NCBI GenBank assembly: GCA_019973955.1
Contig: BMAV01009759.1
Coordinates: 96,532-125,812 of the forward strand
Direction: 5' to 3'
Length of the DNA: 29,281 nt
From: Trichonephila inaurata
Taxonomy: Eukaryota
A program made the translations under genes and the position numbers. Below the pieces are notes generated by a model, which saw only the letters and a list, made by a program, of their open reading frames with translations, ran no database searches and was not told the origin of the DNA. Below, piece after piece: positions 1 through 29,281 of this stretch; positions within the stretch are counted from its first letter, which is position 1; each line of letters begins with the position of its first letter.

Positions 1-63
1 GGGTCTCATCAGAACTGGGAAAGTTTCTCCGATGCTTTAGTTCACATCTTATGGTAATTTCTT

Positions 64-156
64 TCAGCTCACATGTTGCCTTGTCACGAGTTCGAGCCCC
101 GTACCACTAAAGACCCGTTAATATTCAATCAATCAATCAATTCAGCTCACATGTTG
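64..156. repeat. Direct repeat of a 16-nt block (ttcagctcacatgttg) with 77-bp spacing, plus a (CAAT)n microsatellite at 123-141. This is a duplicated copy of the gag element's 3-prime end.
   Basis: ttcagctcacatgttg occurs at 64-79 and 141-156. The second copy encodes the C-terminal ...STCELN* of the minus-strand gag ORF. caatcaatcaatcaa lies between the copies. A tRNA-like T-arm (GTTCGAGCC) sits at 96-112, but no acceptor-stem pairing is present. Confidence 0.35.
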
Positions 157-1335
157 AACGACCCTTTCTTCTCTCGAAATTTATTTTGTTACGGAATGTA
201 TCTTTTTTATTGGAGACAGTAAACACAGAATTTGTCTTCAGCTCAGCTCGTTTATTCTTTTCTTCCTCATATGTTTCGCAATGTTTCTTTGTATGACTTT
301 CGGCCTTATACTTCTCACAAGTAGGAATAATTTTTGGTTTAGGGCAATTGCGTGCTAGATGAAAACCGAATTCTAAACAATTATAACATTTAAATCCTCT
401 GTTCGCATTAAAGTTTTGATTTTTGTGGTTTCTTTGATAACTATTAATAGAATAGGATTGATTCATCGGAAAGTCACTCGAGCATTTTTCTAGATTGTAT
501 TGTCTGTTCATTCTCGGCGGAAATTCACGATTAGAAGGATTTCGAAAATAAATTTTTGTGATTGCTTTATCGCTTATAGATGATCGTAATATTTTCGTTC
601 TATTCTCATATGCATCTAATTTATCAGCTATATTTTCTGGATGAAAATTGACCAATTGTCTGTAAAATGTTCTTGAGTGGTCGCGGAAATTCTTTTTTTT
701 AACCTCTTCGGTAATAGTTAAATCTTTTAATTTCTCGAAATCATTTACTTCAACACCTCCTAACCATTCTTCAAAATATGAGCGTAGATCGTAAACACAA
801 AATCCTTCCAAGTGTTTTCCGATGATCGATAGTGGTTAAAAAGTTTTTGCCGAAAGGATTCAGGGCTTGATTTGAATCTCTTTATGTGATTATAATCGTT
901 CACTTTCTCTTCTGGTTCACGAGCAATTAATTTAGTTATTTCATACGGAAATAAACCTAATGAGCTGGATACCCATTTCTCTTCATCTAATGAAATTAGT
1001 CGAGCTTGCCTCTCGAAAAGAATCAAAAAGAATGTTATGTCTCCATTTTCAATTTCAAATTTTTACATTAAATGACGCATATCCCGCGGATCGCTGTTTA
1101 TATGATTGGATTCAATTTTAATATTTGAATTCTGTAATCTTAATTTTTCTAATTCAAATTCGGCTTTAGCCTTTTCTTCCTTTTCCTTGTCTACACGTTC
1201 CTCAATAATCATATCTAACAAACCTTTTACAAAACCCTCGTCATAATTTTCAGATCTCGTTGTGATATTTCTTAAATTGAAGACTTTACTATGATGTGGA
1301 ACAGTTTCGTTCAATTCTAGGGCCAAAATGACCAA
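137..1335 (-). mobile_element. Degenerate retroelement gag-like ORF with a CCHC zinc knuckle, broken into 3 ORFs by frameshifts
   Basis: Minus-strand ORFs 1063-1335, 760-1026 and 137-811 are collinear. The 224-aa piece contains CYNCLEFGFHLARNC (CX2CX5HX4C, a zinc-knuckle-like motif) and a second Cys/His cluster, CEKYKAESHTKKHC. The N-terminal piece is rich in charged residues and predicted coiled coil (EKAKAEFELEKLRLQ), as gag proteins often are. The frameshifts indicate a pseudogene. Confidence 0.55.
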
Positions 1336-1831
1336 GTCTACTTTTTTCCTTTAGTTAAAAAGACATTTTTTTTAAATAAACTTCGCACCAATTATTTTTA
1401 ATGTATAAAACCGGCTCACAGTTTTTCACTTCTCACACACAAAAAGTCTCAAAATCACAAGAAACTCAATAATTGTAAAAAAAATTTGCTCAGTTCTTAG
1501 AAAAATATAAAGATTCACTCTCTTGCTTAAAAAAATTCAAGGCGTTTGGAATCTCATTTCTGATCTGTTGTAGACTCGCTCGAACCGGGCCACTCATACG
1601 CAGTGATTTCACTACTACACCCTTACATACCCGTGCTTTAACAGCGCTCTCTATAGTTGGGCCCTAACACTATATATATATATGTAGTCTCAATTCTCCA
1701 TCAAAGAGAGATGAACATTCAACAAACAAAACTGAAAAAATATTGAAATCTTAAGACAACCCGACATTGAAGGATAAATGGGAAATTAAAAATATAATAG
1801 GGTTTAAAATATAAAAAAATGGATGCTACAG

Positions 1832-2005
1832 CACTGGCGTAGCTAGTTCTGAATGGGCCCCATATCAAAACTTCTTCGGTGCCCCTTTTTTACAAATGAA
1901 AGCCTTGTTAGTGGTACTTTAGTTACACGTGTTGAGGCCCCTGTAGCTTAGGGAACCCATATCATTAATACGGTTGATACGGCGGTAGCTACGCCCCTTT
2001 GCTAC
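1832..2005 (+). mobile_element. MITE-like non-autonomous element, copy A of a GGGCCC-rich family
   Basis: Terminal inverted repeats ggcgtagctag ... ctagctacgcc bound the element. Internally it carries gggcccc and gaggcccc motifs and a near-perfect palindrome, catatcattaatacggttgatacgg. The whole block is about 75% identical to 6706-6865 and is related in reverse-complement orientation to 16165-16335. Confidence 0.55.
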
Positions 2006-2924
2006 AGTATTATAAACATTGCTGACTTAGGACAGCTTATAAATAAAATAATTTATATAAAAGTGGGGTTGAACATGTTTTGTGGTCAGCCAACCTTCCC
2101 CCTTTATGTTAATAATACTTAGCAAAAACTTATTCAAAATAATGGATAAAATATCTAAATCCATTACAAGATAAAGGTAACTTACCTAAAAATTGCATTC
2201 AAAAATGCATAGCCCGTGCTAAATTTGTGTAGAATAAACAAGCTACTGCCAGATTCTGGACCCAAATGCAAATTCAAAGCATGGGAATGGCTGAATTGTA
2301 GCACTTAGCAAAAGTTGAAAAGAATAGAAATAAAAAAATGAAAACGAGAGTTTATATACTACCATTACTTTAGAGACACTAAGATTATATATGAATTAAA
2401 AAAAAAATAATGATAAATAATTTTATCTAATATTAGAATATGTGGAGGTAACTATATCTAGGAAAGATAATAAATTTATAATAAACTATTATTATTCTAA
2501 GGAATTTTTATCCTTATATAGAATTTCTTTGCTCAAATAACTATTAATAAAATTAATTGGGTATTTTTGAATTAAGCAATATTTAGTAAAATGTTTATAG
2601 TTTTTTTTTATTTTATTTTTTCTGATTTTTTTTTCAAACTAGAAATTTATTGCAATGTATATAATATTGCATATATATATACAGTTTGCATATATATATA
2701 TAATATATATTGCAGTTAATAACAATATTTCTGAATATAGAAACATGTACATTACTCTCCCAATGAGGTACTTTTATAATATTGAATTTAAATTCTTATC
2801 TTTTATCATAAATATTAGTAACTATAAGATTATCTTTTAATTTGATTTCTATATCAAGAAAATTTGCTTCATAGTTGTTACTATTAGTCTGTATTAAATT
2901 AAGATATTGTGACTAAAATTAGTT

Positions 2925-3895
2925 CTAAGTTTTACAATTGACTTGCTTCCCAAAAATGATAATATCATCTATATAACAAAAAATGTAATGTTCAGAATTA
3001 TTAATGAAACTATTTTCAAAATAATTTAAATATAAATTGGCAAGACAGTTGCTAGCAGGGCCACCTTGTGGAAAACCTTTAATCTGTTGATAATAGTTAC
3101 CAGTATAATATATATAGTAGTACAAACCTTAGTAGAGAACCAAATCTATCATAATTAACATTTTAAAATAAATTCTCTTTATGTAATTTTAAAAATAATT
3201 TTGTCATATCAATATTAATAGAGTTGAAGAGATCTTCGAAATCTAAACTATAAACTGAAAAAATCTTTTTATCTTTAATTTGTTCAATAAGTTCTTTACT
3301 ATTTTTAAGTATGGCTGTGGATTTAAGATTATTTATTGTATCTTGTAATATTTCATGAAGAATTTTGCCTGATATATGTATTAAAATCATTAGTATCTGT
3401 TCTAAACTTGACTCAGTCTTTATGAAATTTAGGAGTAAGAAATATGTGGAAATTTAAAATTATTATTATTAATTTGTATTCTTAATTGTTTATGAAAAGC
3501 CAAAATGTAATTATTTATTTCTCTATAATAAACTGATGATTTAATAAAAGCTGTATTAATATCAAAATATTTGTTGATCATTGAACTACAATAGTGTTTA
3601 CAAATGAAGGCAAAATTTCCTGGCACTTTATCAACATAAACTGTAATAAATTTATTTTGCAACTTTTTAATCTGATTTTTAATATCAATAAAAAAGATAT
3701 TATTATTTGTACCAAAGTTATATATTTATTAAGCTGTTGTGTAATGTTACATTTGAATTTTGTGAATGCCTCTAAAGGCATACTATATTTAATTGCTATT
3801 TTGTAAATGAATTGCTCAATATCATTATATAATTGATTTTTTATAATTTTATTATTATTGGAAATCATTACTTTAAAACAAGTACCATTATTCAT
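2925..3895 (-). mobile_element. Reverse transcriptase remnant in an extremely AT-rich block (non-LTR or group II intron-like), pseudogenised
   Basis: Minus-strand ORF 2925-3125 encodes GFPQGGPASNCLANLYLNYFEN...HYIFCYIDDIIIFGK (RT motif 4 QG..S..L.N and motif 5 YxDD). ORF 3163-3390 encodes YSLDFEDLFNSINID (a D..F motif-3-like segment). The further ORFs 3429-3662 and 3578-3895 are collinear. The surrounding 2340-4130 block is about 85% AT with no long intact ORF. Confidence 0.5.
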
Positions 3896-4325
3896 GATAT
3901 ATTGAGGTCAACAGTAATAACATGCTGGTGATGTTTATCTGTGAATTCTTTAAATTTATTACAATTACACTTAAAGTTTTCCTGCTTTATACGCACATCA
4001 TAGTTAAAAATTGATCTACATATTTTTTTATTGTATTTAAAAGCTTTTTTTAAAAGTGATATTTTGAATTGGGAAAGTTGACATGTGTTTTTTTAAAAAT
4101 GCTAGGAAAATTAATATTATTATACTATTTATTCATATATAATAATGTACAATATTCTGTTTGATATTCTTTATTTACATTGACTTTTATGTTACGTTTA
4201 TGTTTCAAATATTTGTGAATGCCTATAATATGCAAAGCATGACATTCTTTTATTTTATATGAATTTAGTACATCTTCGCTAATACCTAGATCTATCTTAC
4301 TGAGACCAAACATGAGAGATTTAAT

Positions 4326-4328
<3 letters not shown>

Positions 4329-4365
<37 letters not shown>
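4329..4365. repeat. (TA)n microsatellite, with a second (TA)n at 4501-4522 flanking the SINE
   Basis: Direct reading shows tatatata repeated for about 37 nt. Confidence 0.9.
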
Positions 4366-4366
<1 letters not shown>

Positions 4367-4515
4367 CCAATTCTCTACTAACAAGAGATAACATCCAAAC
4401 AATAACATTCGACAAACACATAGACAGCAGGAAAATCACACAATGAAGGACAAAGGAGTAATCGAGATAATAAATATAAAATGGATGCTGCAGTGTTATG
4501 AACATTATATATATA

Positions 4516-4897
4516 TATATATGTTGAGTGTCGCCCAACCGGTATAGTGGTTAGTGACGCTGACTGCGGTGCATTAGGGACTGGGTTCAAATCCCGGAGA
4601 AGACATGGATGTTTGTAAATGTATAGTGCCTTTGCGGCATGGGGTACTCTAAATAGCCATCGAGCCGCAAGTCCTCTTGTGTGGTTGGTGAAAAGGGAAG
4701 AAAGGTGGGAGGCCCCTGGTCACCCGCAGGGTTTTTCTCCCTCTAAATTGGGGTGGAACTGAGCAAAATCGTACTGCATGGTGCTCAAAGCTAAGGCTAA
4801 TGACAGGCGTAAAAATTCTAGCCCTTAGCCGGGATGAATTTCGCGGGCCTCGATCTGACTTCGTCAGGCAGGTGGCCTTAGTCACAACACACACATA
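4516..4897 (+). mobile_element. tRNA-derived SINE with a pol III A box and B box
   Basis: The GC-rich block begins with a tRNA-like head. A-box-like tatagtggttag lies at 4533-4544 and B-box gggttcaaatccc at 4573-4585, about 40 nt apart. The T-arm CTGGG-TTCAAAT-CCCGG forms with one G-T wobble, but there is no pairing acceptor stem, so this is not a true tRNA. A body of about 300 bp ends in acacacacatatat and is flanked by (TA)n. Confidence 0.55.
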
Positions 4898-5353
4898 TAT
4901 TTAGTAATTAAAACTCTGTTAAAGGCACTCTCATTGAAATTTATTAGACAAAAATAACATTAAATAAATAATATCAAATAAAAAATGTTGTACTGGAGTG
5001 GATTGCTCCACATATTTTTCACACATTATTGGAACCCAAACGTGATGTCAAGGAAATTCGTGGGAAGCATTTTAAAATCCATTTTCTTTCTTTTATTTAA
5101 GATTCATGTTATTGAGTATGTGTGATTTCTATTTATGTTAATTTGAAGCTTCATAATTTGTTTTTCATGTCTCAGATAAAAGCTTTAGAATTACATCCTG
5201 GTTAGATCACTGATTCCAAATAAGATTTTATTATAAATATTTAGGATTAGAGCTGGTGTTATTCGTAAAATCATAGAAGCATGTAGAAGCATAGAAGACA
5301 TGTAGAATTATCGCACTTAATTATTTTTATTTATATATTTATTTCTTTTTCAG

Positions 5354-5422
5354 TTATACTTTTTCTGATACTTCAGATGGTAAAGATGTTTATCTAGGTG
5401 GAAATACTACTCAGTTAATCAA
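5354..5422 (+). CDS. Candidate upstream coding exon of the NWD1-like gene (YTFSDTSDGKDVYLGGNTTQLIK), phase 2 to phase 2
   Basis: Acceptor tttctttttcag|t and donor aa|gtaaga. The open frame ends with 2 bases (AA), and the next candidate exon supplies the a to complete AAA. No in-frame ATG is present. Support rests only on splice signals and phase consistency. Confidence 0.3.
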
Positions 5423-6020
5423 GTAAGATTGTATTTGTTTCTCAATTTTTATTCATTCACTATTGTAAAATTAATTCAATTCCAAATAAAGCTCATAACA
5501 ATATGTAATTTAGGATAAAATTTGTGTTATTCATTTATACGTAATATTGAAAATGCATTATTTAATTAGGAATTTTTAAAATCATGTGTAAATTAAGGAC
5601 ATCAAATTGCTTTTTTAGATGTCTTTCAAACTATATTCTTATACAAAGCAATAATTGAAATTTTCTTTTGTTTTATAAATAATCTATTGTGAACATGGAT
5701 ACATTTCTAGGTACATAACTTTTACACATATTTTTATTATAAGATTATAATTAAATCATGTAATATTTGATCCGTAGCATTTAATTTTTGGTTCTTTGTG
5801 TAAAAAAATAATCTTGTGTGTGAAAAGACACTGCTACTTTTTAACAAAATCAAAATAACTCTATAACTAAAAAATCGATGCACCAAGGTGGAGTTGCCCC
5901 ATTATAATGATACTTCATATGCTAAGATATTTGGATCGAACATGCAAGTAATTAAAATTTGGTGTCCAATGAATGAATAGCGGGAGCTCCAGTGCATCGG
6001 AACTGCGCATTCGGCAGGTG

Positions 6021-6029
6021 TATATAAGG
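6021..6029 (+). promoter_or_regulatory. TATATAAGG TATA-box-like motif upstream of the Tc1-like transposase ORF, probably the element's own promoter
   Basis: gtgTATATAAGGagc lies about 40 bp upstream of the first transposase ORF. The same 9-mer occurs upstream of the second Tc1-like element at 27606-27614. Confidence 0.3.
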
Positions 6030-6705
6030 AGCGATTCTCAAACTTATGGTCAAAATTTCTGTTGACTGACATATCTTACGTCGGCTGTGACAATCCCTCG
6101 CCGATGGATCCATGCACATTACGAGCAGATGTCAGAGTTTGTAAGAGGTTTTTCGATCGGATTGAAAGTGTCTGGTCGGATGAATTGAAGAATTTGCTCG
6201 ACATCTGTATTGAAGCGATGCGGCGATTAGACGATGCTGGCAAGAGTGGGATCAGTGTCAGAAAGGCAGTGATCGACCGAGGTCCACATTAGAGTTATTG
6301 TCAGAACAGCTGTCACAGTACTGGATTCGTCGTTATCAACTATCTACCGTTTGACCAGTACACATGTGTTCAGCATGACCCTTCAGAGACGACTACGAGA
6401 GCAGAATTTACGCTCGTGCCTACCGTTACGCCGCTTACCTTTCACGCCAGTACACCGTCAAGTTCGTTTGCAGTGGTGCCGGGCTCGACGACGTACTACG
6501 TCTGTTGTTTCTCTTTTTGGGGACCCGGGGACGAGTCCCGTTTCCAACTGTGTCCTGATGACAACCGAAGACGTGTCTGGAGACGTCCAGAACAGCGTGG
6601 AGATCTTGCCCTGACTATGACACACCACACAGGCTCGCAACATTGCATTATAGTTTAGGATTCCATCTCCATTGATAGCTCGGCCCCTTTGGTAGACATT
6701 TCTAG

Positions 6706-6865
6706 CCACTGGTGTAGCTAGCTCTGAAGGGGCCCTGTATCGAAATTGCTTCAGGGGCTTTTTTTAGATGTGGGAGCCCTGTTAGTAGACTGTAGTTACA
6801 CATGATGGAGCCCTGGTAGCTTGGGGCCCCGTATCATTGATACGGCGGTCTGTTTCTAGCACACT
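6706..6865 (+). mobile_element. MITE-like element copy B, nested inside the Tc1-like transposase pseudogene
   Basis: ccactggtgtagctagctctgaaggggccc ... gggccccgtatcattgatacggcggt is collinear with copy A at 1832-2005. It splits the transposase between ...HHTGSQ and LTAQRYVDEIL. The 3-prime TIR is partly degraded. Confidence 0.55.
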
Positions 6866-8163
6866 GACAGCACAGCGATACGTTGACGAAATCTTACGAC
6901 CGTTTTTGTTACCGTTCCTTTTGCGACACCCAGGTCTTACATTTCAACACGATAATGCCCAGACGCACACGGCACGTGTTGCTATGAATTGTCTTCAAGC
7001 TTTCCCCACTCTTCCTTGACCAGCTAGGTTACCTGATTTCTCTCCCATAGAGCACATTTGGGACGTTACGAGAAGGCGATTACAACCATCCCGGAATGTT
7101 GACGATTTAGCCCAACAGTTGGAGACAATTAGGCACGAAATTCTGCAGGACGCTATCCGGGAACTTTATCAGTCTATGTGCTGATGGGTGACAGCTTGCA
7201 TCCGGGACAGAGGTAGTCCAATGTCTTATTGATTTTTTCCCTTTGTGTAACGGTCAAACTTTGAAAGAAATTTCGATCGTTTGTTTTTCTGTGCATGTTC
7301 TACAATTTACATAGAAAATGTATATCCTCCAATTTTTATCACAATTGGACAACTCCTTCTTGGTGCTTTTATTATTATTTTTTTTATAGAGAGTACTTTC
7401 ATCTGTAATTAAAAGGGTATGAATACCTGTTATACATAAGAACTAAATGCGATGAATATATATATATATATTATTTCTGAGAAAATGATTGTTCTGTTTC
7501 GTATTTTAATAAAATGCTTTTTAAAAGTGATTTTTTGTTTTATGAAGTAAAATATATTCTCATATGAAAATGATTTTGAATTCTGCATGCTGAAAAAATG
7601 TTGTAATCATAAATTTTTTTGTACAGGTAATAATGAGATGATAATTGTGTTTGAAATTGTTGATGGGTTATCCAGTAAGAAAAGCCAACTTTTTTGAAAT
7701 TGTTGAAGTTTTCAATTTAATTTTAAGAGAAATCTTATTGAATCAGTGTATTAAGGATTAATATTTCTTTATTTATGACTATTTCTCATTGCTTCTTTTT
7801 TACAAACTACGTAAATGCAATTTATACTTTTCATCAGTATATAATTTATGTTTAGTTGTTAAATTACACGTGCCACTTTCTAAATAATCTTGGAAATATC
7901 TCTGATAATATATTATACTTAATATGTTGAGTATAAAGAGTCATGAAAAATACAAAAGTTTAAAGTAATTATTTGATTTTATTGTTTTTCTTGGTATATA
8001 ATTATATAATTTTAAGTATTGATTAATCAGCTTCACGGTTTGCACGTTCATCTACACTATACTTATTTGTTTGAAATCGAAGTTTAAGCTGTTTTTAATC
8101 ACGAAACAGTTTATCTTAGTTTCAACTGCTTATTTTTTAACTCCATTTTATCATTTTACTTAG

Positions 8164-8328
8164 ATTTATTGCTGAACGATCCAGTGGTGGACAGTTGGCA
8201 TATGTTGAAAATATTGATGCTAAGTATGACTTAACAAAGATTACTAATACAGATAAATATAAGAATTTGAAGACTTCACTTGTATCAGAACATTTACCCA
8301 AAGTGCCTTTGTTGACTAGAGTTCCAAA
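8164..8328 (+). CDS. Candidate coding exon of the NWD1-like gene (FIAERSSGGQLAYVENIDAKYDLTKITNTDKYKNLKTSLVSEHLPKVPLLTRVP-K), phase 2 to phase 2
   Basis: Acceptor ttttacttag|a and consensus donor aa|gtaaga. The open frame ends with AA, and the first base (a) of exon 9118 completes Lys and continues into WHTVRIFISS. It is phase-compatible with both neighbours, but its protein sequence is not independently recognisable. Confidence 0.4.
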
Positions 8329-9117
8329 GTAAGAAAATAAGTTTTTGTAACAAATAAATATATATACATATAAATATATTGGGATATTTAAAAATAATAT
8401 GGCATTTTATTTCATAAATGTGCGATCATTTGTTCGTCGAGGAACAACGTGTATATAAAGCAAATGACTATCGTTTGCCTGATAGTACCCGCATGTGCTG
8501 CCGGAGACACATGTGTTTATTATTTTAACTGTCATATGTGTTGTTCTTTTCACGAATGTCCAAGAATAAAAAATTTATTTCTTATTCTGCAAAATTTTAA
8601 ACTGAAAATGATTCATTTTGTAGAGGTGCGTGGCAATAAAATTGCATCAAGACAGTTTGGGCCACCTTCTACATGTGCTATAATTGGAGTGTAGAATAAA
8701 CACAAAGGTAAATTCTCATAAATGCATATGTGAAGTGAGCAGCCTGAGGCAAAAGGGCAGGTGGCCTATACCTGAGAGAAAACTCAAACACTGGGTAGAA
8801 AGCCTAAAGCAGACTTCTTCTACTAATTTGAGAAAAAAAATCTGATCTAACTGATTGAGATGTATCAAATAAGAATGATGAGGAATTTAATGATCTTTCT
8901 CAGATGAACGAAATAAGCCATTTTTCAATATTTTGTAGTAAAAAGTACTTTAAAGAGTTTTTTCCTCCAAATTTTAAGCCCTTAAAATCAAGAGTTCCTT
9001 ATACACAAAAGTTTCTTATATATGTTAGGCATGTGTGTTTCAGATGAGTGACATTTTTATTTAAATGTCAAATTTTATATTTTTTTTTCAAATTGACTTT
9101 TTTTCTTCTATTTTTAG

Positions 9118-9294
9118 ATGGCATACAGTACGGATTTTTATATCATCTACGTTTAAAGATATGCACTGTGAAAGAGATATGCTAATCCGCTTTGTAATGC
9201 CTGAATTAAAGAAAAGAGCAGCTTCAATTTTTGTTAAAATCAATGAAGTGGATTTACGCTGGGGAATTTCTGAGAGTGACTGTGCTTCAAAACG
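9118..9294 (+). CDS. NWD1: NWD1-like gene exon, first half of the DUF4062-like domain (WHTVRIFISSTFKDMHCERDMLIRFVMPELKKRAASIFVKINEVDLRWGISESDCASK-R)
   Basis: Acceptor ctatttttag|a and donor cg|gtatac, ending in phase 2. The (V/I)FISSTF.D...ERD motif and FEVVDLRWGI-like VDLRWGISE motif are the conserved N-terminal signature preceding the NACHT domain in NWD1-family proteins, the DUF4062 domain. Confidence 0.85.
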
Positions 9295-9884
9295 GTATAC
9301 TTTTTTTGCATTTGATGTATATATATTCTAGCTTTCTTATAACTAAAAACAAAATTTTTAATCAAAGAACGCTTTTTTTATTGAAAAACTGCATAAAATG
9401 TTTCTAACTGTACATTATTTTAAATATTTACTTGTAGTTAACTTACTGTTTTAAATATAACTTACTTGTTAAACATGTGTCCTTTTTCTACTTAGTCTAA
9501 ACTTATTGTGCACAAAATATATTTAAAATTATGTTTTCATGCTTTTTTCCCAAAATATTTAAAAATGCCTTTGATTTTTGAAATGTCAAATTGTTTAAGA
9601 CATATTTAGGTAGATTGCATAAAAAATGAATTGATTTAATCATGAAAAGAGAATCAATTAAGTAACAAAATAAATTAATTGATATCTTTCTGAGCTAAAG
9701 AAGATAAACTTGAAAAATCTTTATGTTTTAATAATTTGAAGAATCTAAAAATTATTTCATAATTTTTGAAATTAATGACGTATTTTAAATTGTATTTGAT
9801 GTATTGAATGTAATTTTGAATTATTTAGGCATTATACAAAAAGCATTTAAAATGGCATGATATTAATTTTATATATAAAGTATA

Positions 9885-10025
9885 CAGTGGTGTAATGTAC
9901 AGCCCTGCATTGCAAGGGGCCCATGTGTTCTAGGGAGCCCAAAGGCTGACTGATATCCTGTACGCATTTGGGCTTGGGGCCCAAAACCTGATATTGCAGG
10001 GGCAGCCCTAGTATTCTTCGTTATG
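9885..10025 (-). mobile_element. Diverged copy D of the GGGCCC-rich MITE family
   Basis: caaggggcccatgtgttctagggagccc ... ggcttggggcccaaaacctgatattgcaggggcagccc resembles the reverse-complement arrangement of copy C (16165-16335). It is only about 60-65% similar, so the call is tentative. Confidence 0.3.
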
Positions 10026-10988
10026 CCACTGGAGGAATATCCTCTCTAAGTATAAATGAAATGAAATAAATGATTGTTATCATTTTTTTAAAAAAACAAA
10101 ATAATGATTTTTCTGACAGTAAAACGCAATTTTGACAAATGTTTTTTGCTTATAAATTTAATGAAGAATTTTTGTTATTGTTCCAATGCTTCTACAAAGG
10201 TTTTAAATATTGAATTATTGAGAGATTGGATATCTAGATATTTGTAACCTCAAATATCTCATGCTTTTTCAGCATTATGGAAATCTCCTTTTTTTTCCGG
10301 GATATTCTTAATTTAACTTATCTCGTTCTCAAGAATTAAGTTTTTTTCAGATGAAGTAGTACTCTGTCGTCCATCAAGAGGAATTTGTCATCAGTAGTTT
10401 TTTTTTAAACATTTTGTGTATTTAATTTTATAAAAATTATGTTTTTTCCCCCTTAATATTTACCGAACAGTACATGAAAGCTAAGGTGACATTATCTGAG
10501 TTACTTTTTGAATCATATTTAAGATTTCTATTAAGGATATGTTGAATTTCTTTTAGGTATGGTGTTCCTTCTCACGATCAAGCTCTTTTTGAAGATTAGT
10601 CCCAACTTTAACCGGCTATGTCTAACAGACATTTTGCACTCAATATTTGCTTTAAAAAAACAGAATTCAAAAATGTTTTAAAAATAAATAAAGGGAATAC
10701 ACTTGTTCTACATCTAACATGGATGAGATATATATTGCCATAAATACCCTCAGCACTTATTTTTAGGTTGATTGCATGAATGTAAGAAATGCAGTTTAGT
10801 AGAAATCGATAGCTGTTATTAACCAGTTTATCTTAAAGCTACTCTTAAGTTTGTTAATTAGAAAGAAAGTGATCCTTGGATTTAAATTAAAAGCACCAAT
10901 ATTTTATTCAGAAATAAAAATCGTATATGTTGCTGAATTTTGTTTTGTGATATATTTCTTAGAGCTATTTATTTTATTTAAATTTTAG

Positions 10989-11228
10989 TGCTGCTGAGAT
11001 ATGCCTACTAGAAGCTCAAAAATCTGATTTATTCATTGGCATAATTGGAGAGAGATATGGTACGATTTATAACTTTGATGCACCAGATGCTCCTGAACTT
11101 CAATGGGTAAAAGAACACCCGAAAGGTTTATCAATAACAGAACTGGAAATGTATGCTGGAGCTCTTAGAGAAAATAAACTGAAAGAAAAAAGAGCATTCT
11201 TTTATTTCCGAAATAATTCATTTATGAG
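10989..11228 (+). CDS. NWD1: NWD1-like gene exon, second half of the DUF4062-like domain (AAEICLLEAQKSDLFIGIIGERYGTIYNFDAPDAPELQWVKEHPKGLSITELEMYAGALRENKLKEKRAFFYFRNNSFM-R)
   Basis: Acceptor aattttag|t. Its first base completes CGT (Arg) with the previous exon. Donor ag|gtattt, ending in phase 2. The motif C..E...CD.FIGI.G.RYG is the second conserved DUF4062 block (human NWD1 has CLEEVDRC...ALIGDQYG). Confidence 0.85.
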
Positions 11229-11892
11229 GTATTTATTGAAATGTTACCAAATTTTCTTAAAAGGATTTATAAAATGATCTTATATCCTGTAACTATATTT
11301 CTGTTTCTGTACAAAATTGTCTGAAAATATCTCCTGTTGACATAAATATGTGTACAATATTTTGCAGTTATGGTATTTTATTGACTTCAGAATGACTGTC
11401 TTCTTTAATATATGAATTCAAAAAGCTGATTTCTAACTTTTATTGTCTTAAGTTATATATTAGTTAAGAATACTTGTCTAATATGACCATTTTTTTCAAT
11501 TTGCCTTACTTACCGTAACCTTTGATTTTCATTTGATATATATTTTGTTAAAATCTCATGTGCTCCCCTAGTTTTTTTGGTCAGTAGATATTGAAAAAAA
11601 AAAATAATAATAAATAAAGGAAACAATTCAATATTTAAGCAAATTGTTTCGAAGCTAAGTAGTAAAATTTTTAGAAATATTTAGTATTTTCAATTATATA
11701 CTTTTAAATGCATCACTAAAATTTAAAAAAGTTTTATTGAATTTATAAAAAATTTTTAGCTTGGAAGGAGTTTTTTAAATTAAACTATTAAAAGCTGCTT
11801 TTAAATGTATACTTTCAATTTTTATCTCCGTCATTTTGATTAAGTTGTTTCATACATGAGATTTAAATTTTATTAATCACTTTCTTCAACAG

Positions 11893-22500: not shown

Positions 22501-23631
22501 TATATTGTATTAAAAAAAAGGGGAAAAATGCTTTTCTTAGTAAACATATTTAATTTTTAATGATAGAAATAGGGAGAAGTCTGGAAAGCCACAAACGTCT
22601 CTTAAAGCACAGAGTAAAAAAAGCAAACCCGCACAAAATATTCAGCGGCTTGGATTTATGAATCTTATTGACACAGTAATTTAATAATAAAAGTAGTAAA
22701 CTGAAGCAGGGCATGCACATAATTTTTTTTTATGTTGGAGGGGGGGTTAAGTTTTTTTTTTTGAAAAGAGATAAAAAGTGTTGAGACGTAATCTTTATGC
22801 TAAAGATTAAAAATCTGCTGTTGTATGAGGAGGAGGGAAGGAAGAATTGAACCCTCCATTCTTGTGTATAGATATCCTGCTTAGAATTTAAAGGAATTCA
22901 TGATTCCAAAAAGAGTGTTGTAGATTGTGATAAAGCACAGTGCTTCTCAAACTTTCAATATTTACGACCCAATTTTCAGTCAGAATTTTCATCGCGCCCC
23001 ACTTTCTTACAATAACAATGTATTGAATGTAATTATAATGTACTTTGATGGTAAAACTGCGATACAATACGACTTTAATTGTAAAAACCGTACTAATTAT
23101 CAAGATAAATATGAAGTTTTATATATAATTTTGTATATGACAAGCCCAAGGGAGTCACTAGTAATCACTAAACTTGTTTTTAATTGAATATTGATAAATT
23201 AACTATCAAATACTTTGTGCAGTACTGATACATTTATAAGTAGTGTATATTATATCAGTGAGAATGTGTATTTCATTTTTTATTACACAAGAATGTATTT
23301 TATTTTGTAATTATTTTAAATTGCAAGTTATTTTATTGAATTGATAATTATTTTAAATGTTTTATTTTCAATTTTTTGCGATATGCGCCCCCTCCCCCCA
23401 ATTAGGGTTATCACGCCCTTCTAAGGGGCGCGCCCCACAGTTTGAGAAACGCTGCGATAAAGATTTTATTTCGAGTTTTGAGAATAATTTAATAACCGTA
23501 TACATGAAACAAAATATGATTTGGGAAGAAAAGCCAAGTGATTTATATAATAATTTGGCCGATAGCTAAACGAAGATTTGATAATTTAGATATAAAAATG
23601 AAAGAGAATAATATTGGGTTTTTAATAAACA

Positions 23632-23782
23632 CTAGGCGGTTGGTTGTACGTTCTCTGTAATTTTAATTTTTTCTCTCTCCAATTTTTTGCACCCTAGACA
23701 TGTGCCTAAGCGGAAAAGCGGGCCTGCCTCATGCTGCCTGTATCGCTGGCCATATTGGACGTACAACCAATTGATCACCTAG
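23632..23782. mobile_element. Small MITE with ~25-bp terminal inverted repeats
   Basis: cactaggcggttggttgtacgttc at 23632-23655 is the reverse complement of ggacgtacaaccaattgatcacctagtg at 23756-23783. A GC-rich core of about 100 bp lies between them. Confidence 0.5.
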
Positions 23783-23951
23783 TGTTGTCTCTTTCTATGT
23801 ATTGTTGAACTAAACTTCACTTATTGTTTCATGCAATGTTTTCCTATTTTCATTACTTTTTACTTATGCGTTTGTTATGCTGGATTTTCTACGTCATACA
23901 GTACATTTTTCAGTTTCCTCTTGTGTATGTCTAATAGCTTTTTTAATATAG

Positions 23952-24236
23952 GGTCTGAAATTGATATGCACAGCTTCTGACTCATCTTGTGCTTTTCAAG
24001 TCTTAAGTGAGAGACTAATGCATGGATCTCCTGTAGAAATTCAACCATTATCTGTGATTGATCAACCAGATCGAACATGCATTGTAAAAAATTATCTGAA
24101 GCTATACGGAAAATCTCTTGATGAAAGTTCTTTTAACAATCAAATGTTATTAATGATAACAAAGAAAGACAGTGGTAATCCTCTCTATTTAAGATTGGCA
24201 TGTGATTTCCTTAGAAGATATGCATCATTTGAAAAT
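23952..24236 (+). CDS. NWD1: NWD1-like gene exon, NACHT core after Walker B (GLKLICTASDSSCAFQVLSERLMHGSPVEIQPLSVIDQPDRTCIVKNYLKLYGKSLDESSFNNQMLLMITKKDSGNPLYLRLACDFLRRYASFEN)
   Basis: Acceptor taatatag|g sits directly after an in-frame TAG, and donor aat|gtaagc; phase 0 to phase 0, contiguous with ...WLPLNLPQ. LKLICTAS is the hhhh(T/S)(S/A) sensor-1 strand. GNPLYLRLACDFLRRYASF matches the human NWD1 segment GNPGRLRLAFEEARKWASF. Confidence 0.85.
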
Positions 24237-24360
24237 GTAAGCTCACATTTTTCTCTTAAATGATATTTAAATTTTTCTTTTCCTATTTTTTAACTTCCAA
24301 AGCAATATTTTTTTGTAACTGTGTTTTTTAAGTGGTTTTCTGTTATTTTTTGTTATTTAG

Positions 24361-24493
24361 TTTATGTCCATGCTTCAGAGTTTACCATCGGCGATGTCTT
24401 TACTATTGCAAGAAATTATCCTACAAATGGAAAATGAATTTGGATCTATTCTTCTTCAGACTACTTTAATTTTGCTATGTATTACAAAAGAAG
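24361..24493 (+). CDS. NWD1: NWD1-like gene exon, NACHT winged-helix region (FMSMLQSLPSAMSLLLQEIILQMENEFGSILLQTTLILLCITKE-G)
   Basis: Acceptor tgttatttag|t and donor g|gtacgt, ending in phase 1. It matches the human NWD1 segment CTRLEQTHGQLLVAHVLGYIVSSRHG. Confidence 0.8.
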
Positions 24494-25254
24494 GTACGTC
24501 CCAAATAATTATTACCAAATTTTTCTATTTTATTAAATAACATATTGATTTTTCATCTGCTTTGGTCAATATTTACCCGAAAATATTCATTGGTTATCTG
24601 AAACATGGTTTTTTCTTAACTTATACCATTCTCTTTCTCTTTGTACAAGCTTTTATTCAGAAATTACAATAAAGCTTCTTTCAAGGTATTGTAGAAAACA
24701 ATTTTTACTGGTGTTTTACCTAAATTAATATTAAGATTTATTAAGGTACTATGCACAGGTGACTAAGAGCATTTTAGGACACTTCACAATTTTTGAATTC
24801 ACTTCTATAATTTTGCAGTGGTAAAAGTATCGCCTAGGGTTTTGTTTCTTTGTTACATACAATTTGCCGTCGCATTGAATTATTGACTTAGAAGCGTTTC
24901 TTCATTTGTTTAACTCAACATTTCTAAAAGTTCATAAGCAGGTATCATTCAGATTTGATTATATTTTCGCAGCATTTAACATTTCATTCACTTTTCCGCA
25001 TTACCGTTTGAATATAATTTCAGCTGATATGTATCAAATTGTTGGATTGGGTTTTATTTTATTAAAAAAACTTCAGTTGTTCTTCGTATTTATTCGTTTT
25101 ATAGAATTCTTGTTCATAGGTTGTTTGTGTCTGTTCCTTTTTAATATGAAGAAACACTAAGCACATTGGTTGGCATTATCCATATATATAAAGCAGAAAA
25201 GGGACTCACTCACCACGGGATTAAGAAGGAGTTATACACAAAAATTCCTGTTTC

Positions 25255-25660
25255 TTAATTATTATTATTAGACGCACTGGGTTGAAATTTGGTAAGCATG
25301 TTCTTTTCCTTGAGTAGAGATCTACCGACAGCAGGGTTTACCGAGATCGACTTCCGGGGCGGGGGAAGAGAAGGTGCATAAATAAAAAAAATTGTTTTTA
25401 AACAATTATACCTATAAACTTCAAATTTGTTTCATTTGTTGAGTAAAGATCCGCTAAGAACTGGTTTCATAGAAATCGACTACAGTGGGATTGCGGTGGC
25501 TAAGGGGCCGTATAGATAAGAAAATAACTGGTTTTGAACTATTAGACGTAGAAATTTGGTAATTATGCCTTTTTTGTTGAGAAGAGATCTGCTGAGAACG
25601 GGTTCCCCCTCGACTTTGCTCAAGGGGGAGGGATTACGGGGAACATAAAAAAATAAACAG
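25255..25660. repeat. Three diverged tandem copies of a ~135-bp satellite-like unit
   Basis: Each unit starts with agacgcactgggttgaaatttggtaa, ataaacttcaaatttgtttcatttg or agacgtagaaatttggtaattatg. Each continues ttgagtagagatctaccgacagcagggtt, ttgagtaaagatccgctaagaactggttt or ttgagaagagatctgctgagaacgggtt, and ends in a G-rich ggggcggggga or gggggaggga block plus an A-run. Confidence 0.6.
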
Positions 25661-25832
25661 ACTTTAGTTCTTACAAATTCCTTTTTAAACTAAGTGGCGG
25701 GAGTATATGGTTGTAATATATGGAAAAGGTTATTGGTAAGACTTATACCTCAATAACTGTACATTCATACATCATGAAATACCTAGTGAAGAGGACGGGC
25801 AATGCCTAGCTACTGATATATAAGTTGCAATA

Positions 25833-25857
25833 ACACACACATACACACACACACACA
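25833..25857. repeat. (CA)n microsatellite
   Basis: acacacacatacacacacacacaca read directly. Confidence 0.85.
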
Positions 25858-26513
25858 TGTGCGTGCACAGTATTATTAAAGGTGGTATTGAATTATTACC
25901 TTTAAAAATAATTTCCACATATTCTTCCATATCGTAGGAAATGAAATTCATATCTTTTTCAGTCTGTTTTTACAAAAAAAAAAAAAGAAAAAAAAGTTGA
26001 CTATGAAACATGGATTTATCATCCTATCTTTCTAATAAGCTTGAGAGAATTAAGAAATAAAACATTTTCATTCTTGAATCGTAAGCCATATTGCTTTTTA
26101 TTTTGTTAATGGATTGTAAAAAAATGTGAAGTAGTTTGACATATACAATCTGCAGTCTTTACAGATTGTAATCCTCCAAATAAACTTTTTTTTCTTTGGA
26201 AGAAATGTCTTTATTCATAATTAGAGCTTTGACTCTGTCAATGATGAATTAAGTAAAACTCTTAAAAAATTACATTTTTTCCCTTATGTTAAATGATTCA
26301 GTATTTCTTGAAAATTATGAAAATCTTCCAAGCATTTTAGACTTGTTTGTAATACTATTCTTAGGAAAAGGTAAGAATAGAATTTGTTGAAGTAATCTTG
26401 ATAGAAATCTTCCTCTATACAGCTCCAAATCAAAATATTCGAATAGCTCAAGAAGTCATTGTATTGTCATATAAGCTATTGAGACATTTGTGAAAGTAAA
26501 AAAATTGAGACGA

Positions 26514-26530
26514 ACAACAACAACAACAAA
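26514..26530. repeat. (CAA)n microsatellite followed by poly-A
   Basis: acaacaacaacaacaaaaaaaaaa read directly. Confidence 0.8.
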
Positions 26531-27589
26531 AAAAAAATGATCGTGTTTACAATAAGCTTACATATGATGCATATTGTTCATATACGTCTAAACAATCAAT
26601 TGAGATGTTATGAAAAAAAATTGTAATAAATGCAAAAAAAATATTTATGTAATATTCCTAGAGGCAATTAAAAATATTACAATATTTGCAAATTTTTGTA
26701 ATTTTCCTCCTTGGAAGATATAATTTGTGTAAATGGCGCCTCTGTAGAGCCGTAACGTGTAAAAACAAGGACGTGTGTGCAAGGGTGGGGTTTAAGGTTC
26801 AACCCTTTCCCCATAGACTTACAGATTTTTTAATTTTTAACGATTACGATTCTCAGCGATTTCATCTACGTGTTTTTAAAATATAACCTCCCCGCCCATT
26901 TATAAAATAAGTCCGTTTATGCCATTGATATAAAGGCTTGTTCGAAAGTCATCTTTAGTCAGTCGCGAATTAAAAATATGCCACATGAAGGACATACTTG
27001 GGCTGTACTAAGATTGGGATTGTAACTACCAAATAAGGGACTTTATAAACAAATGATTGCCCACGTAAAAGAATTGCTCTCGTGGAACTGTGTGAGTGAA
27101 GTATTCAGATTATTCTAATGATGGAAATTTTAAATACTGATGCAAAGAGTGTTTGTAGACGAGTAAGTATGATAAGACGACAGAATGTTGAAACCCATCG
27201 CGTGAAAAAAAAAAACATTTCAAGAACCTAAACCTCATAAATGGAAAGTAGTGAGAACAGGAAGGGGATGCCTTAACATCTAATATGAAACGATTCCAGT
27301 GACTTGTTTCCCCATAACGCATGCCCTAGACAAAATTGCTATTATTAAGCAAAAAAGGACAAGAGTATAATATGGAATTCAGGCCTGATAATAATTTCAG
27401 GCATAATTTTCATTGCCCTCCCCATGCAGTAACAATGTATTAATTGCAGTAATAATGTACATAGCTGGACACACAAAATGCAACACCCTGAAGGAAGCAT
27501 GCAAACTATATGAAATTTACATCATACGTTAGCAACGATGGAATATTCAAATCATTAGCATTATAGCGCAGACGCACATCATTACGGGT

Positions 27590-28310
27590 GACCACGCGAC
27601 AGCTCTATATAAGGGCAGAACAGATTGGTGATTTGAAGTAGAAGGAAAGTTGATTGGCAATTGTTTTTTCGTGCGGTTTCTTTTTTTTGCGTAAGCTGTT
27701 TACCTGTGCCTCTTAGAAGACTTCGAGCTTCTTTTGACTACGTTTCTGAATTCGACCGAGGAAGAATAGTAGCCAATAGGGAATGCGATTTATCCTTCAG
27801 AGAAATCGGCCAACGTGTTGGTTGAAACCAAGCAACTGGGATACGAATTTGTCATCGCTGGATGCAGGAGGAAACAACTGACCATCGGGGCCGATCGCAC
27901 CCACCTTGTTGCACCCACTGCCCGTGACTGCAGGTGGATTGTGCGCATGGCAGTGATGGATAGCACAGCCACATCACGAACCATAGCATGACAGATTCAG
28001 TCTGTTATGCATCATTCGGTGTTCACTCGTACCATTCGACGCCGTTTCCGCCGAGTGGAATTTCCGCAAGGCGTCCATTGCTTGGTTTACCCTTGACTGG
28101 AAACCATAGGCGTTTGCGCCGCCAATGGTGCGATGAACGGTGGACATGGACTACGGAATGAAACGACATTGTGTTTACTGATGAATCCCGCTTCTGCCTG
28201 CAACATCATGATGGTCGGATTAGAGTTTAAAGATACTTTGGTGAGAGGCCGCTGAACTGTTGCGTTATGCATCGCTACACTGTTCCTGCACCCGATATCA
28301 TGGTTTTATT
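27590..28310 (+). mobile_element. Second Tc1-like transposase pseudogene (different copy or family), 3-prime truncated, ending ~40 bp upstream of a host exon
   Basis: Shifted plus-strand frames give FDYVSEFDRGRIVAYRECDLSFREIGQRVG (HTH), RFPPSGISARRPLLGLPLTGNHRRLRRQWCDER.TW (second HTH and linker) and IVFTDESRFCLQHHDGRIRV.RYFGERPLNCCVMHRYT.PAPDIMV (start of the DDE domain). It is preceded by TATATAAGG at 27606-27614. Confidence 0.75.
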
Positions 28311-28349
28311 ATATGGTATTTATTCTAAGATTTTGTTTTTTCCTTACAG

Positions 28350-28528
28350 GCCTGGATGATGCAGATTTGCATTTGCTTCTTAGTATGGTGTTACTGGAAA
28401 AAGAAAAAGGAACCTTGCTTACTTATAAAAGTGCAATTGATCAAATAGCTAAACTGAAGCCTGATAATATGCTGTCTCATGTTACCTACTGTTCTTTAGT
28501 GCACACCATTTGTTCTTTTGCTTATGGA
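28350..28528 (+). CDS. NWD1: NWD1-like gene exon (G-LDDADLHLLLSMVLLEKEKGTLLTYKSAIDQIAKLKPDNMLSHVTYCSLVHTICSFAYGHNR)
   Basis: Acceptor ttccttacag|gc; its first two bases complete GGC (Gly) with the previous exon. Donor agg|gtacat, ending in phase 0. GLDDADLHLLLS matches the GLSEAELKDVLS motif of human NWD1 in the NACHT C-terminal helical region. Confidence 0.8.
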
Positions 28529-29281
28529 CACAACAGGTACATTAAAATAATTCGCTTATGGTTAGTTTATTTTTGCAGTAATTTTGTATTAGAATTTTGA
28601 ATACCATAAAAATTTTTGTAAAAAATGAAAAAAATAAATAAAAACAATCGAAGCAGTTTGCATAATGTGTGAAATAAGTAAAAGTGAGGTGTTTATCTAA
28701 TGAAATTCTCGATTTTGGTCTATATTTTCAAGTTTTCCATCCATGACAAAAAAGTTAAGAGGCAAATTGTTTTAGGTTGGATAAAATTATAGTCACTCAT
28801 TGATTAAAAAATTTGTACTGAAGCGAGGGCAGTGAGTTTTCCGTGGTCGATTCCACTGAATAGACTATTGTCTTTTTAGGTGGTGTTTCCATCTGAATGG
28901 TTAGTATTATTGTCCATCTCAGGATAATCCCATGGATTTACTTGAGAGGAGCATTATCTGACTGTTTACTTGTAATAAAAATAATGGTTAGATATAACAT
29001 GACTTCAGAAGAGTAATGAAGATTGACCTAAACAGTTTATTAAAGGGTTGTAAGATAGAAAGTGCACACAGCAAAAGTACAATGAAAGAATATTGTTTAG
29101 TTTCATATCTCAATTAGAATCAGTTGAGCTGTTTTAGAGTAAGTTTTTAATTTAAAGTAAGTAACTTAGTTTAGTTTGATCGTTAGATTTTTATGATTTA
29201 TCAGAAATGTTAGAGAGCTTTAGTTTTTGTTTTTAGAGATATTTCTATTCAGAGTATCACATGACGCTGTATATGTTACCG

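Follow-up and report, generated by a model that had tools for sequence, protein, structure and literature searches.

A spider STAND NTPase locus with a TIR-like DUF4062 domain very probably represents the central part of a TEP1 gene

The stretch of DNA analysed here (29,281 nucleotides, hereafter the window) carries on its plus strand a gene of several exons that encodes a STAND NTPase, in which a DUF4062 domain precedes a NACHT-type P-loop module. This much was recognized in a first-pass annotation, which placed the gene in the NWD1 family, and the locus raises the question of whether this is the family to which the gene belongs. TEP1 (telomerase protein component 1) is a minor vault protein; the NACHT-then-WD40 order is common to TEP1 and NWD1/NWD2 and hence does not discriminate between the families. 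NWD1, which follows STAND logic too, has a NACHT module, a helical domain and WD40 repeats after its DUF4062 (bioRxiv 10.64898/2026.05.01.722283; PMC7186558); this DUF4062 lies in the N-terminal region without any TROVE/vWA module, whereas in the window coding exons precede DUF4062. We conclude that the TEP1 gene of a nephiline orb-weaver close to Trichonephila clavipes very probably runs through the window, which contains its central part. The assignment to TEP1 instead of NWD1 follows from the structural match of the TIR-like domain, the TROVE-bearing best homologs, the DUF5920 tail and the names given to the T. clavipes counterparts. The gene is already known, since fragments almost identical to it bear the name telomerase protein component 1 in T. 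clavipes and Araneus.

Eleven plus-strand exons were mapped, nine within the range covered by the first-pass annotation and two upstream of it (Table 1). All are bounded by canonical AG/GT sites and are intact, with neither stop codons nor frameshifts; they splice in phase except at the join of exon E to exon G, and are collinear with the loci of two other spiders. Together they encode the DUF5920 tail, the whole of DUF4062, the Walker A and Walker B segments of NACHT and the helical/winged-helix region. All motifs quoted in the first-pass annotation were found in the order given there, and seven of its splice positions (9294/10989, 11228/11893, 12006/13030, 13147/13365, acceptor 23952, 24236/24361 and 24493/28350) are canonical and exact. 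Position 15433 is no splice site, the true GT donor lying directly after 15412, and the last exon ends at 28536 instead of 28528. In place of the eleven segments proposed, only nine homology-supported exons lie within 9118-28536, the interval 13545-15267 being unsupported as coding; the single junction reported as phase-inconsistent is that of exon E to exon G, at the gap left by a missing exon.

Table 1. Positions in the window of the exons assigned to TEP1 and of the interval between exons E and G
Feature	Position	Strand	Content and remarks
Exon U1	5354..5422	+	Encodes ..YTFSDTSDGKDVYLGGNTTQLI(K), part of the TEP1 DUF5920 tail; basis: tblastn with Araneus P0001 and Stegodyphus P0083, AG/GT sites; counterparts: Araneus L001 14750-14809, T. 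clavipes L003
Exon U2	8164..8328	+	Encodes FIAERSSGGQLAYVENIDAKYDL...LLTRVP(K); DUF5920 end and linker to the TIR-like domain
Exon A	9118..9294	+	Start of the DUF4062/TIR-like domain (WHTVRIFISSTFKDMHCERD ... VDLRWGI); PDB 11gz_A alignment
Exon B	10989..11228	+	TIR-like domain core; DLFIGIIGERYG with R equivalent to human R976; SITELE
Exon C	11893..12006	+	TIR-like domain, continuation
Exon D	13030..13147	+	TIR-like domain end; last exon within the span of the human crystal construct
Exon E	13365..13544	+	Linker and NACHT Walker A (GTPGCGKT); phase 0 end, GTAAGA donor
E-G interval	13545..15267		Expected site of the ~155-nt exon; none detectable
Exon G	15268..15412	+	Walker B (FVLVIDGLD) and WLPLNLPQ; phase 2 start; donor GT at 15413
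Exon H	23952..24236	+	Remaining NACHT module and helical lid (KLICTASD ... SSFNNQM ... GNPLYLRLACDFLRRYASFEN)
Exon I	24361..24493	+	Winged-helix/helical region (FMSMLQSLPS...CITKE)
Exon J	28350..28536	+	GLDDADLH...FAYGHN; phase 2 end; GT donor at 28537

Both ends of the gene fall outside the window, as had been stated; the first segment at 9118 is nevertheless not where the gene begins, since exons U1 and U2 lie in phase upstream of it. Exon U1 itself starts in phase 2, and therefore at least one more exon must lie 5' of the window. No TROVE exon was found in positions 1-5353 or in the 3.4 kb further upstream covered by the T. clavipes locus L003. On the other side the window ends within the intron 3' of exon J, and the following exon, placed by its position in T. 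clavipes, lies ~2.1 kb further, past the window end; the WD40 region would come after that end. The complete gene would have its TROVE exons 5' and its WD40 propeller exons 3' of the window; these two modules are the clearest hallmarks of TEP1, and neither has been seen for the window locus itself.

The joined protein matched Pfam DUF4062 with E=1e-14, as the first-pass annotation had anticipated. Its closest solved structure is the DUF4062 domain of human TEP1 (PDB 11gz_A, 'Telomerase protein component 1'), which aligned with the joined protein over its first 214 residues (1-214), of which 42% are identical (E=5.5e-56). In this alignment the second glutamate of the SITELE motif (E112) is the equivalent of the catalytic E1008 of human TEP1; it is invariant across 60 homologs and present in 139 of 140. 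Furthermore, the equivalents of R954 and R976 are retained, and lysine replaces R908, one of the three arginines lining the human active site (for the roles of these four residues see bioRxiv 10.64898/2026.05.01.722283). The AF2 model of the TIR-like domain has a mean pLDDT of 93, and Foldseek matched it weakly to plant TIR domains. The order of DUF5920 tail, DUF4062, NACHT and helical domain is also shared with human TEP1. A TIR-like DUF4062 with an invariant catalytic glutamate is likewise found in bacterial Swarozyc and in prokaryotic DUF4062 defence proteins, and identity is about 38% in alignments with prokaryotic DUF4062-NACHT-WD40 proteins; the prokaryotic defence proteins, however, act in anti-phage abortive infection, lack TROVE and DUF5920, and are encoded by single open reading frames not split by introns.

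When 1.84 billion representative proteins were searched exhaustively with HMMER, the best targets were 2000-2900 amino acids long, and the matches in them began near target residue 780-1000. A local TROVE profile detected TROVE in all of the 13 best and in 32 of the 38 best targets, and a Pfam scan of the top four found TROVE, DUF4062, WD40, Beta-prop_TEP1_2nd and Beta-prop_TEP1_C. Targets from Stegodyphus, Tachypleus, Lytechinus and Podarcis carry TEP1-like source names. Full-length TEP1 proteins were not seen in the word-index search, because no protein returned by it exceeded 910 amino acids. The alignments with TEP1 orthologs start at query residues 5-10 and thereby take in exons U1 and U2. 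These two exons matched positions 138-179 of the 203 of Pfam DUF5920 with E=0.0019 and 18.3 bits, below the cut-off of 27, and Araneus P0001 matched positions 107-180 with E=7.8e-4; in TEP1 orthologs DUF5920, which is vWA-like, lies between TROVE and DUF4062 (E=2e-10 to 1e-5). These matches and alignments place the TEP1-specific DUF5920 tail directly upstream of DUF4062.

The annotated TEP1 genes of spiders represent orthologous loci sharing exon boundaries with the window. Protein identity to the window is 97-98% for T. clavipes (GFU38297.1 and the MWRG01004229 model; P0154, P0242), 72-75% for Araneus ventricosus (models P0001 and P0243) and about 59-60% for Stegodyphus dumicola (XP_035227346.1; P0083). 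Every exon, but not its introns, is conserved in A. ventricosus (by tblastx) and T. clavipes, the exons being ~99% and the introns ~91% identical to those of T. clavipes. Exons G-J are identical to T. clavipes in 740 of 750 nucleotides, with six synonymous and four non-synonymous codon changes, including 143/145 nucleotides in exon G and 133/133 in exon I; exon U2 is 96.6% identical to P0154. The helical-region block SSFNNQM...PLYLRL is conserved in spider TEP1 (P0083, P0243 and P0242), and the block containing it is 37% identical to that of lizard TEP1 (P0146). Only parts of the gene are covered by the models published for T. clavipes and Araneus, and in the T. clavipes model P0154 the frames of an intronic Tc1-like transposon have been fused to exons U2 and A.

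That the gene is an invertebrate ortholog of NWD1/NWD2, whose protein would begin with DUF4062, go on to NACHT and WD40 and carry no RNA-binding module, is very improbable. The DUF4062-NACHT order is in common, the core is shared by human NWD1, NWD2, NPHP3 and TEP1 (bioRxiv 10.64898/2026.05.01.722283), and Pfam HTH_NWD1 was matched weakly, short of its cut-off, with E=0.014-0.034 (exon I, E=0.014). This reading, and with it the earlier notion that the protein starts with DUF4062, is contradicted by the in-phase upstream exons matching the DUF5920 region that precedes DUF4062 in TEP1 orthologs, while the PDB match, the spider annotations and the TROVE-containing proteins that rank at the top among the homologs all point to TEP1. 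Hits with an N-terminal DUF4062 reached at most about 290 bits, compared with 300-770 bits for TEP1-type proteins; those with names checked were archaeal, metagenomic or protist proteins, and of the ranked hits 18 were checked by name, none being an animal NWD1. NWD1 is thus set aside by architecture and hit ranking and not by phylogeny. More improbable still is an NPHP3-like or TPR-type DUF4062-NACHT STAND protein of the kind met among metagenomic 'nephrocystin-3' hits. Pfam NPHP3_N did match with E=7e-6, and many hits of the word-index search, at 25-42% identity, have TPR repeats following DUF4062-NACHT; these TPR-bearing hits are, however, far weaker than the TEP1 orthologs of the exhaustive search, and P0083 of Stegodyphus, the nearest spider ortholog (60% identity), continues downstream into WD40 and Beta-prop_TEP1 propellers, not TPRs.

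Taking the gene as TEP1, one exon expected in the NACHT module is missing. Araneus and Stegodyphus possess an exon linking Walker A and Walker B, of ~155 nucleotides (about 51 amino acids; Araneus L001 30011-30165, VDLLRKLKNFTVIKFFVGLSPRST...), which the window lacks: it was not found anywhere in the window by tblastn, by Smith-Waterman alignment, by enumeration of open AG..GT segments or by a profile built from 66 sequences (--max, all six frames). Within 13545-15267 nothing is supported as coding, and the ortholog alignments show a gap of 50-65 amino acids where the Walker A-Walker B segment is expected. A direct join of exon E to exon G shifts the frame, and because the exon is absent TEP1 as assembled cannot be read through. 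Although Walker A and Walker B are both present, Pfam NACHT scored 21.9 bits, below its cut-off of 26.7, because of the missing exon, so that the NACHT match predicted by the first-pass annotation was not reached at that threshold. On the minus strand the interval also carries, at about 13890-14600, a transposase-like remnant that is degenerate and includes the motif 'DKARPHVAKT'.

The exon may have been deleted, or the assembly may be faulty here; in its absence the copy of TEP1 in the window may be non-functional. It is possible, although rather unlikely, that the locus is a recently disabled TEP1 allele or pseudogene, in which a deletion, possibly linked to a transposon, removed the Walker A-Walker B exon. 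Such an event is consistent with the failure of four independent search methods to find the exon window-wide, with the length of the E-G interval (1.7 kb against 8.6 kb in Araneus, where the exon lies 0.8 kb past E), with the transposase-like remnant inside that interval, and with the lack of any counterpart of 13545-14948 in the 2.7 kb of T. clavipes L002 that lead up to the homologous point. Against it, the other 11 exons are intact and far better conserved than the introns in comparison with T. clavipes, so that the copy could have been inactivated only very recently. The picture would, moreover, be no different if the assembly had collapsed here or if an indel were specific to one haplotype, and the T. 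clavipes loci compared end short of the E-G interval on either side; a 601-aa T. clavipes model of this locus with an unmarked AAA_22 match (E <= 1e-5) hints that the exon is present there.

The DUF4062 domain of human TEP1 is a TIR-like NADase that hydrolyses NAD(P)+, and in vitro NADase activity was seen with TEP1 but not with purified human NWD1 or NWD2; both NAD(P)+ hydrolysis and residence in the MVP vault have been demonstrated for human TEP1 only (bioRxiv 10.64898/2026.05.01.722283). By homology with the human protein, spider TEP1 is predicted to be an NADase associated with vaults. With the conserved SITELE glutamate its DUF4062 would function as a TIR-like NAD(P)+ glycohydrolase, its TROVE module would bind vault RNA, its NACHT-WD40 part would serve as a switch for oligomerisation and sensing, and the whole protein would sit within the MVP vault shell. 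MVP orthologs have been reported from arachnids except Acari (PMC11219742), and the retention of the catalytic glutamate in spider TEP1 supports conservation of the chemistry in those chelicerates that have kept MVP as well.

Beyond the correct annotation of spider TEP1 the finding has little significance. The exon map could be used to repair the fragmented public gene models of spiders, among them the one with fused transposon frames, and the missing NACHT exon flags either a fault in the assembly or a recent disabling deletion. A genuine loss of the exon, leaving a putative TIR-like NADase domain intact and constrained beside a broken or rewired NACHT switch, is unlikely; if true, it would mean either that the NADase had become naturally uncoupled from its STAND regulation or that TEP1 function had been lost very recently in a spider lineage that has kept its vaults.

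By sequence comparison, the gene is an ortholog of TEP1 (telomerase protein component 1, the vault minor protein), a known gene of a known family that is annotated already, as fragments, in sister species such as Trichonephila clavipes. The joined protein matches Pfam DUF4062 (E=1e-14), as anticipated by the first-pass annotation, and weakly NPHP3_N, AAA_16 and NACHT; the NACHT match, also anticipated, scores 21.9 bits, short of the 26.7 cut-off, owing to the interruption of the module. The single strong sequence match in the PDB was 11gz_A, 'Telomerase protein component 1', the crystal structure of the human TEP1 DUF4062 domain (E=5.5e-56, residues 1-214, 42% identity). When 1.84 billion representatives were searched exhaustively with HMMER, the proteins matched were 2000-2900 aa long. 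The matches began near residue 780-1000 of the target and at residue 5-10 of the query, which means that the upstream exons U1 and U2 are included. The four best carry TROVE, DUF4062, WD40 and TEP1-specific propeller families. A local TROVE profile was positive in all of the best 13 matches, in 32 of the best 38 and in 71 of the 150 matches listed; the TROVE-negative proteins within the best 38 are shorter and their alignments likewise begin at query residue 6-10, so they look like N-terminally truncated TEP1 models. Source names are TEP1-like for Stegodyphus dumicola, Tachypleus, Lytechinus and Podarcis, and 'telomerase protein component 1' for the T. clavipes (97-98% identical) and Araneus proteins.

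The gene had been placed in the NWD1 family, an assignment that fails because one of its defining features, an N-terminal position of DUF4062, is not found here. Matches with an N-terminal DUF4062 score lower, and those looked up are archaeal, metagenomic and protist proteins, with no animal NWD1 among them. A word-index homolog search returned nothing above 910 aa and missed both the full-length TEP1 orthologs and a 97%-identical T. clavipes fragment, all found by the exhaustive HMMER search; taken alone, it would have pointed to a TPR/NPHP3-like family.

The structural observation itself was largely correct, its errors being the family label, the gene start and two coordinates. All the motifs quoted are present on the plus strand in the order claimed, and seven of the proposed splice positions are canonical and exact. 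There is no splice site at the proposed donor 15433, the GT donor lying after 15412 (CCGCAA/GTAATT), and the last exon ends at 28536 (AACAG/GTACAT) rather than at 28528; with these two positions corrected, exons A-E and G-J each form a stop-free block. Every exon aligns in the same order to the Araneus ventricosus locus with 62-84% amino-acid identity in tblastx, over stretches running slightly beyond each exon, and the introns gave no tblastx alignment to that locus. Exons G-J are identical to T. clavipes at 740 of 750 nt, against about 91% in the flanking introns, and the codon changes comprise six synonymous and four non-synonymous ones. The agreement of the exons with both species is far above chance, and the comparison shows that they are under purifying selection.

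Coordinates of the gene's exons, mobile-element remnants, repeats and indels
Feature	Window position	Strand	Location or remark
Retrotransposon remnant	137-3895	minus	intron upstream of U1
(TA)18 microsatellite	4329-4364
G+C-richer stretch adjoining the microsatellite	4619-4894		frames read ...GTLNSHRAASPLVWLVKREERWEAPGHPQGFSPSKLGWN
Exon U1	5354-5422	plus	exact limits
Tc1-like transposase remnant	about 5980-7180	plus	U1-U2 intron; frameshifted, 49% G+C
Exon U2	8164-8328	plus	exact limits
Exon A	9118-9294	plus
Indel	9822/9825		A-B intron; about 6.2 kb with Tc1-like element in T. clavipes L003 (13378-19616), absent from window
Exon B	10989-11228	plus
Exon C	11893-12006	plus
Exon D	13030-13147	plus
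Exon E	13365-13544	plus
Exon G	15268-15412	plus
Indel	15465-16754		G-H intron; about 1.3 kb in window, absent from T. clavipes L002
G+C-richer block (39-45%)	about 17000-19800	minus	8.5-kb G-H intron
Exon H	23952-24236	plus
Exon I	24361-24493	plus
Open frames	27637-28310	plus	end about 40 bp before exon J acceptor
Exon J	28350-28536	plus

The gene does not start at exon A, as had been proposed, since U1 and U2 provide in-phase coding sequence upstream of it. The Araneus protein has 127 residues preceding WHTVRIF, part of which maps by tblastn to window 5364-5423 and 8156-8329. Each of the two has a polypyrimidine-AG acceptor and a GTAAGA donor, and together they join 9118 in phase (...VPK/WHTV). 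The U1-U2 region matches Pfam DUF5920 below the cut-off (E=0.0019), a family that follows TROVE and precedes DUF4062 in the orthologs of TEP1. As U1 starts in phase 2, the gene extends past the 5' end of the window; further 5' exons were detected neither in window 1-5353 nor in 3.4 kb of additional T. clavipes sequence.

One junction had been reported as phase-inconsistent, and this is true of E-G, where an exon is absent: the phase is 0 at the end of exon E but 2 at the start of exon G, so that a direct join shifts the frame and soon meets a stop. Nine of the eleven segments originally listed are supported within 9118-28536; the extra two are presumably unsupported segments of the E-G interval. 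Araneus has a 155-nt exon between the counterparts of E and G (30011-30165 of its locus, VDLLRKLKNFTVIKFFVGLSPRSTELSYMLQYISNSIARTFPVSSVFPKLT), located between Walker A and Walker B, Stegodyphus TEP1 carries the equivalent peptide, and in four orthologs the gap between the two matched blocks amounts to 50-65 residues. When exons C-E together with this Araneus exon served as query, the word-index homolog search gave no match at all, the Araneus protein included. The exon was not found anywhere in the window by tblastn with word size 2, six-frame Smith-Waterman alignment or relaxed blastn, nor was it among the right-phase AG..GT open segments of 13545-15267, all of which were enumerated; a 66-sequence profile with filters off matched only the flanks (13512-13619 and 15266-15364). 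One blastn match, 65% over 99 nt at 16590-16681, falls within the wrong intron, has no stop-free frame resembling the missing peptide and was rejected as AT-rich chance similarity, and a candidate exon at 14927-15076 showed neither similarity to the expected peptide nor a usable donor. The E-G interval measures 1.7 kb, versus 8.6 kb in Araneus, and its minus strand holds the degenerate remains of a transposase-like sequence (DKARPHVAKT). The two T. clavipes loci stop short of this interval, L003 ending at window 13221 and homology to L002 starting only at 14949, the first 2.7 kb of L002 being unrelated sequence. The absence of the exon may be genuine, through a deletion, or may reflect a fault in the assembly.

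The window is AT-rich (about 23-35% G+C), its G+C-richer islands coinciding with transposon remnants, and contains no Rfam RNA family. T. clavipes contigs are collinear with 141-13221 and 14949-29270, and nucleotide identity, counting introns, is 90-94%; the sequence thus comes from a spider closely related to T. clavipes and not from the T. clavipes assembly itself. In the retrotransposon remnant, gag-like ORFs, of which the one at 137-811 contains a motif resembling a CCHC zinc knuckle (CYNCLEFGFHLARNCP), are accompanied by a fragment of reverse transcriptase at 2925-3125 (Pfam RVT_1, E=1.1e-8). L003 has this entire block too, about 90% identical, which makes it older than the species split. 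The Tc1-like remnant matches HTH_Tnp_Tc3_2 (E=4e-7) and DDE_3 (E=2.5e-5), and the T. clavipes model GFU38297.1 wrongly fuses its frames (window 6234-6496) to exons U2 and A before running on into the next intron. The block in the G-H intron, shared with L002, has DUF4817 helix-turn-helix ORFs below the cut-off (E=0.0012) and, at 17574-17771, a fragment resembling a transposase C-terminus, and is probably another DNA-transposon remnant. The frames preceding exon J (e.g. ...LPLTGNHRRLRRQWCDERWTWTTE) presumably resemble a Tc1-type transposase in its N-terminal region; they have no Pfam match and no DNA similarity to the Tc1-like element. The stretch beside the microsatellite probably resembles a repeat common in spider genomes. 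No match to plasmids was obtained for an intronic transposon by megablast.

DUF4062 has been described as a TIR-like NADase: human TEP1 hydrolyses NAD+ and NADP+ in vitro and within reconstituted vaults, an activity not seen with NWD1, NWD2 and NPHP3, and its catalytic E1008 belongs to an active site lined by R908, R954 and R976 (bioRxiv 10.64898/2026.05.01.722283). In the alignment with 11gz, the catalytic glutamate is conserved as the second glutamate of SITELE, invariant across 60 homologs and kept in 139 of 140. The equivalents of R954 and R976 are also kept; unlike in human TEP1, the R908 equivalent is a lysine, as in 13 of 67 TROVE-positive homologs. AlphaFold2 modelled the domain confidently (pLDDT 93), and the Foldseek matches, from a PDB library that predates 11gz, were limited to weak ones with flavodoxin-like and plant TIR structures. 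The spider TEP1 would be expected to act as an NADase, to reside in vaults and to be activated under NACHT/WD40 control. Since orthologs of MVP, the vault shell protein, are reported in arachnids except Acari (PMC11219742), such a vault context is plausible.
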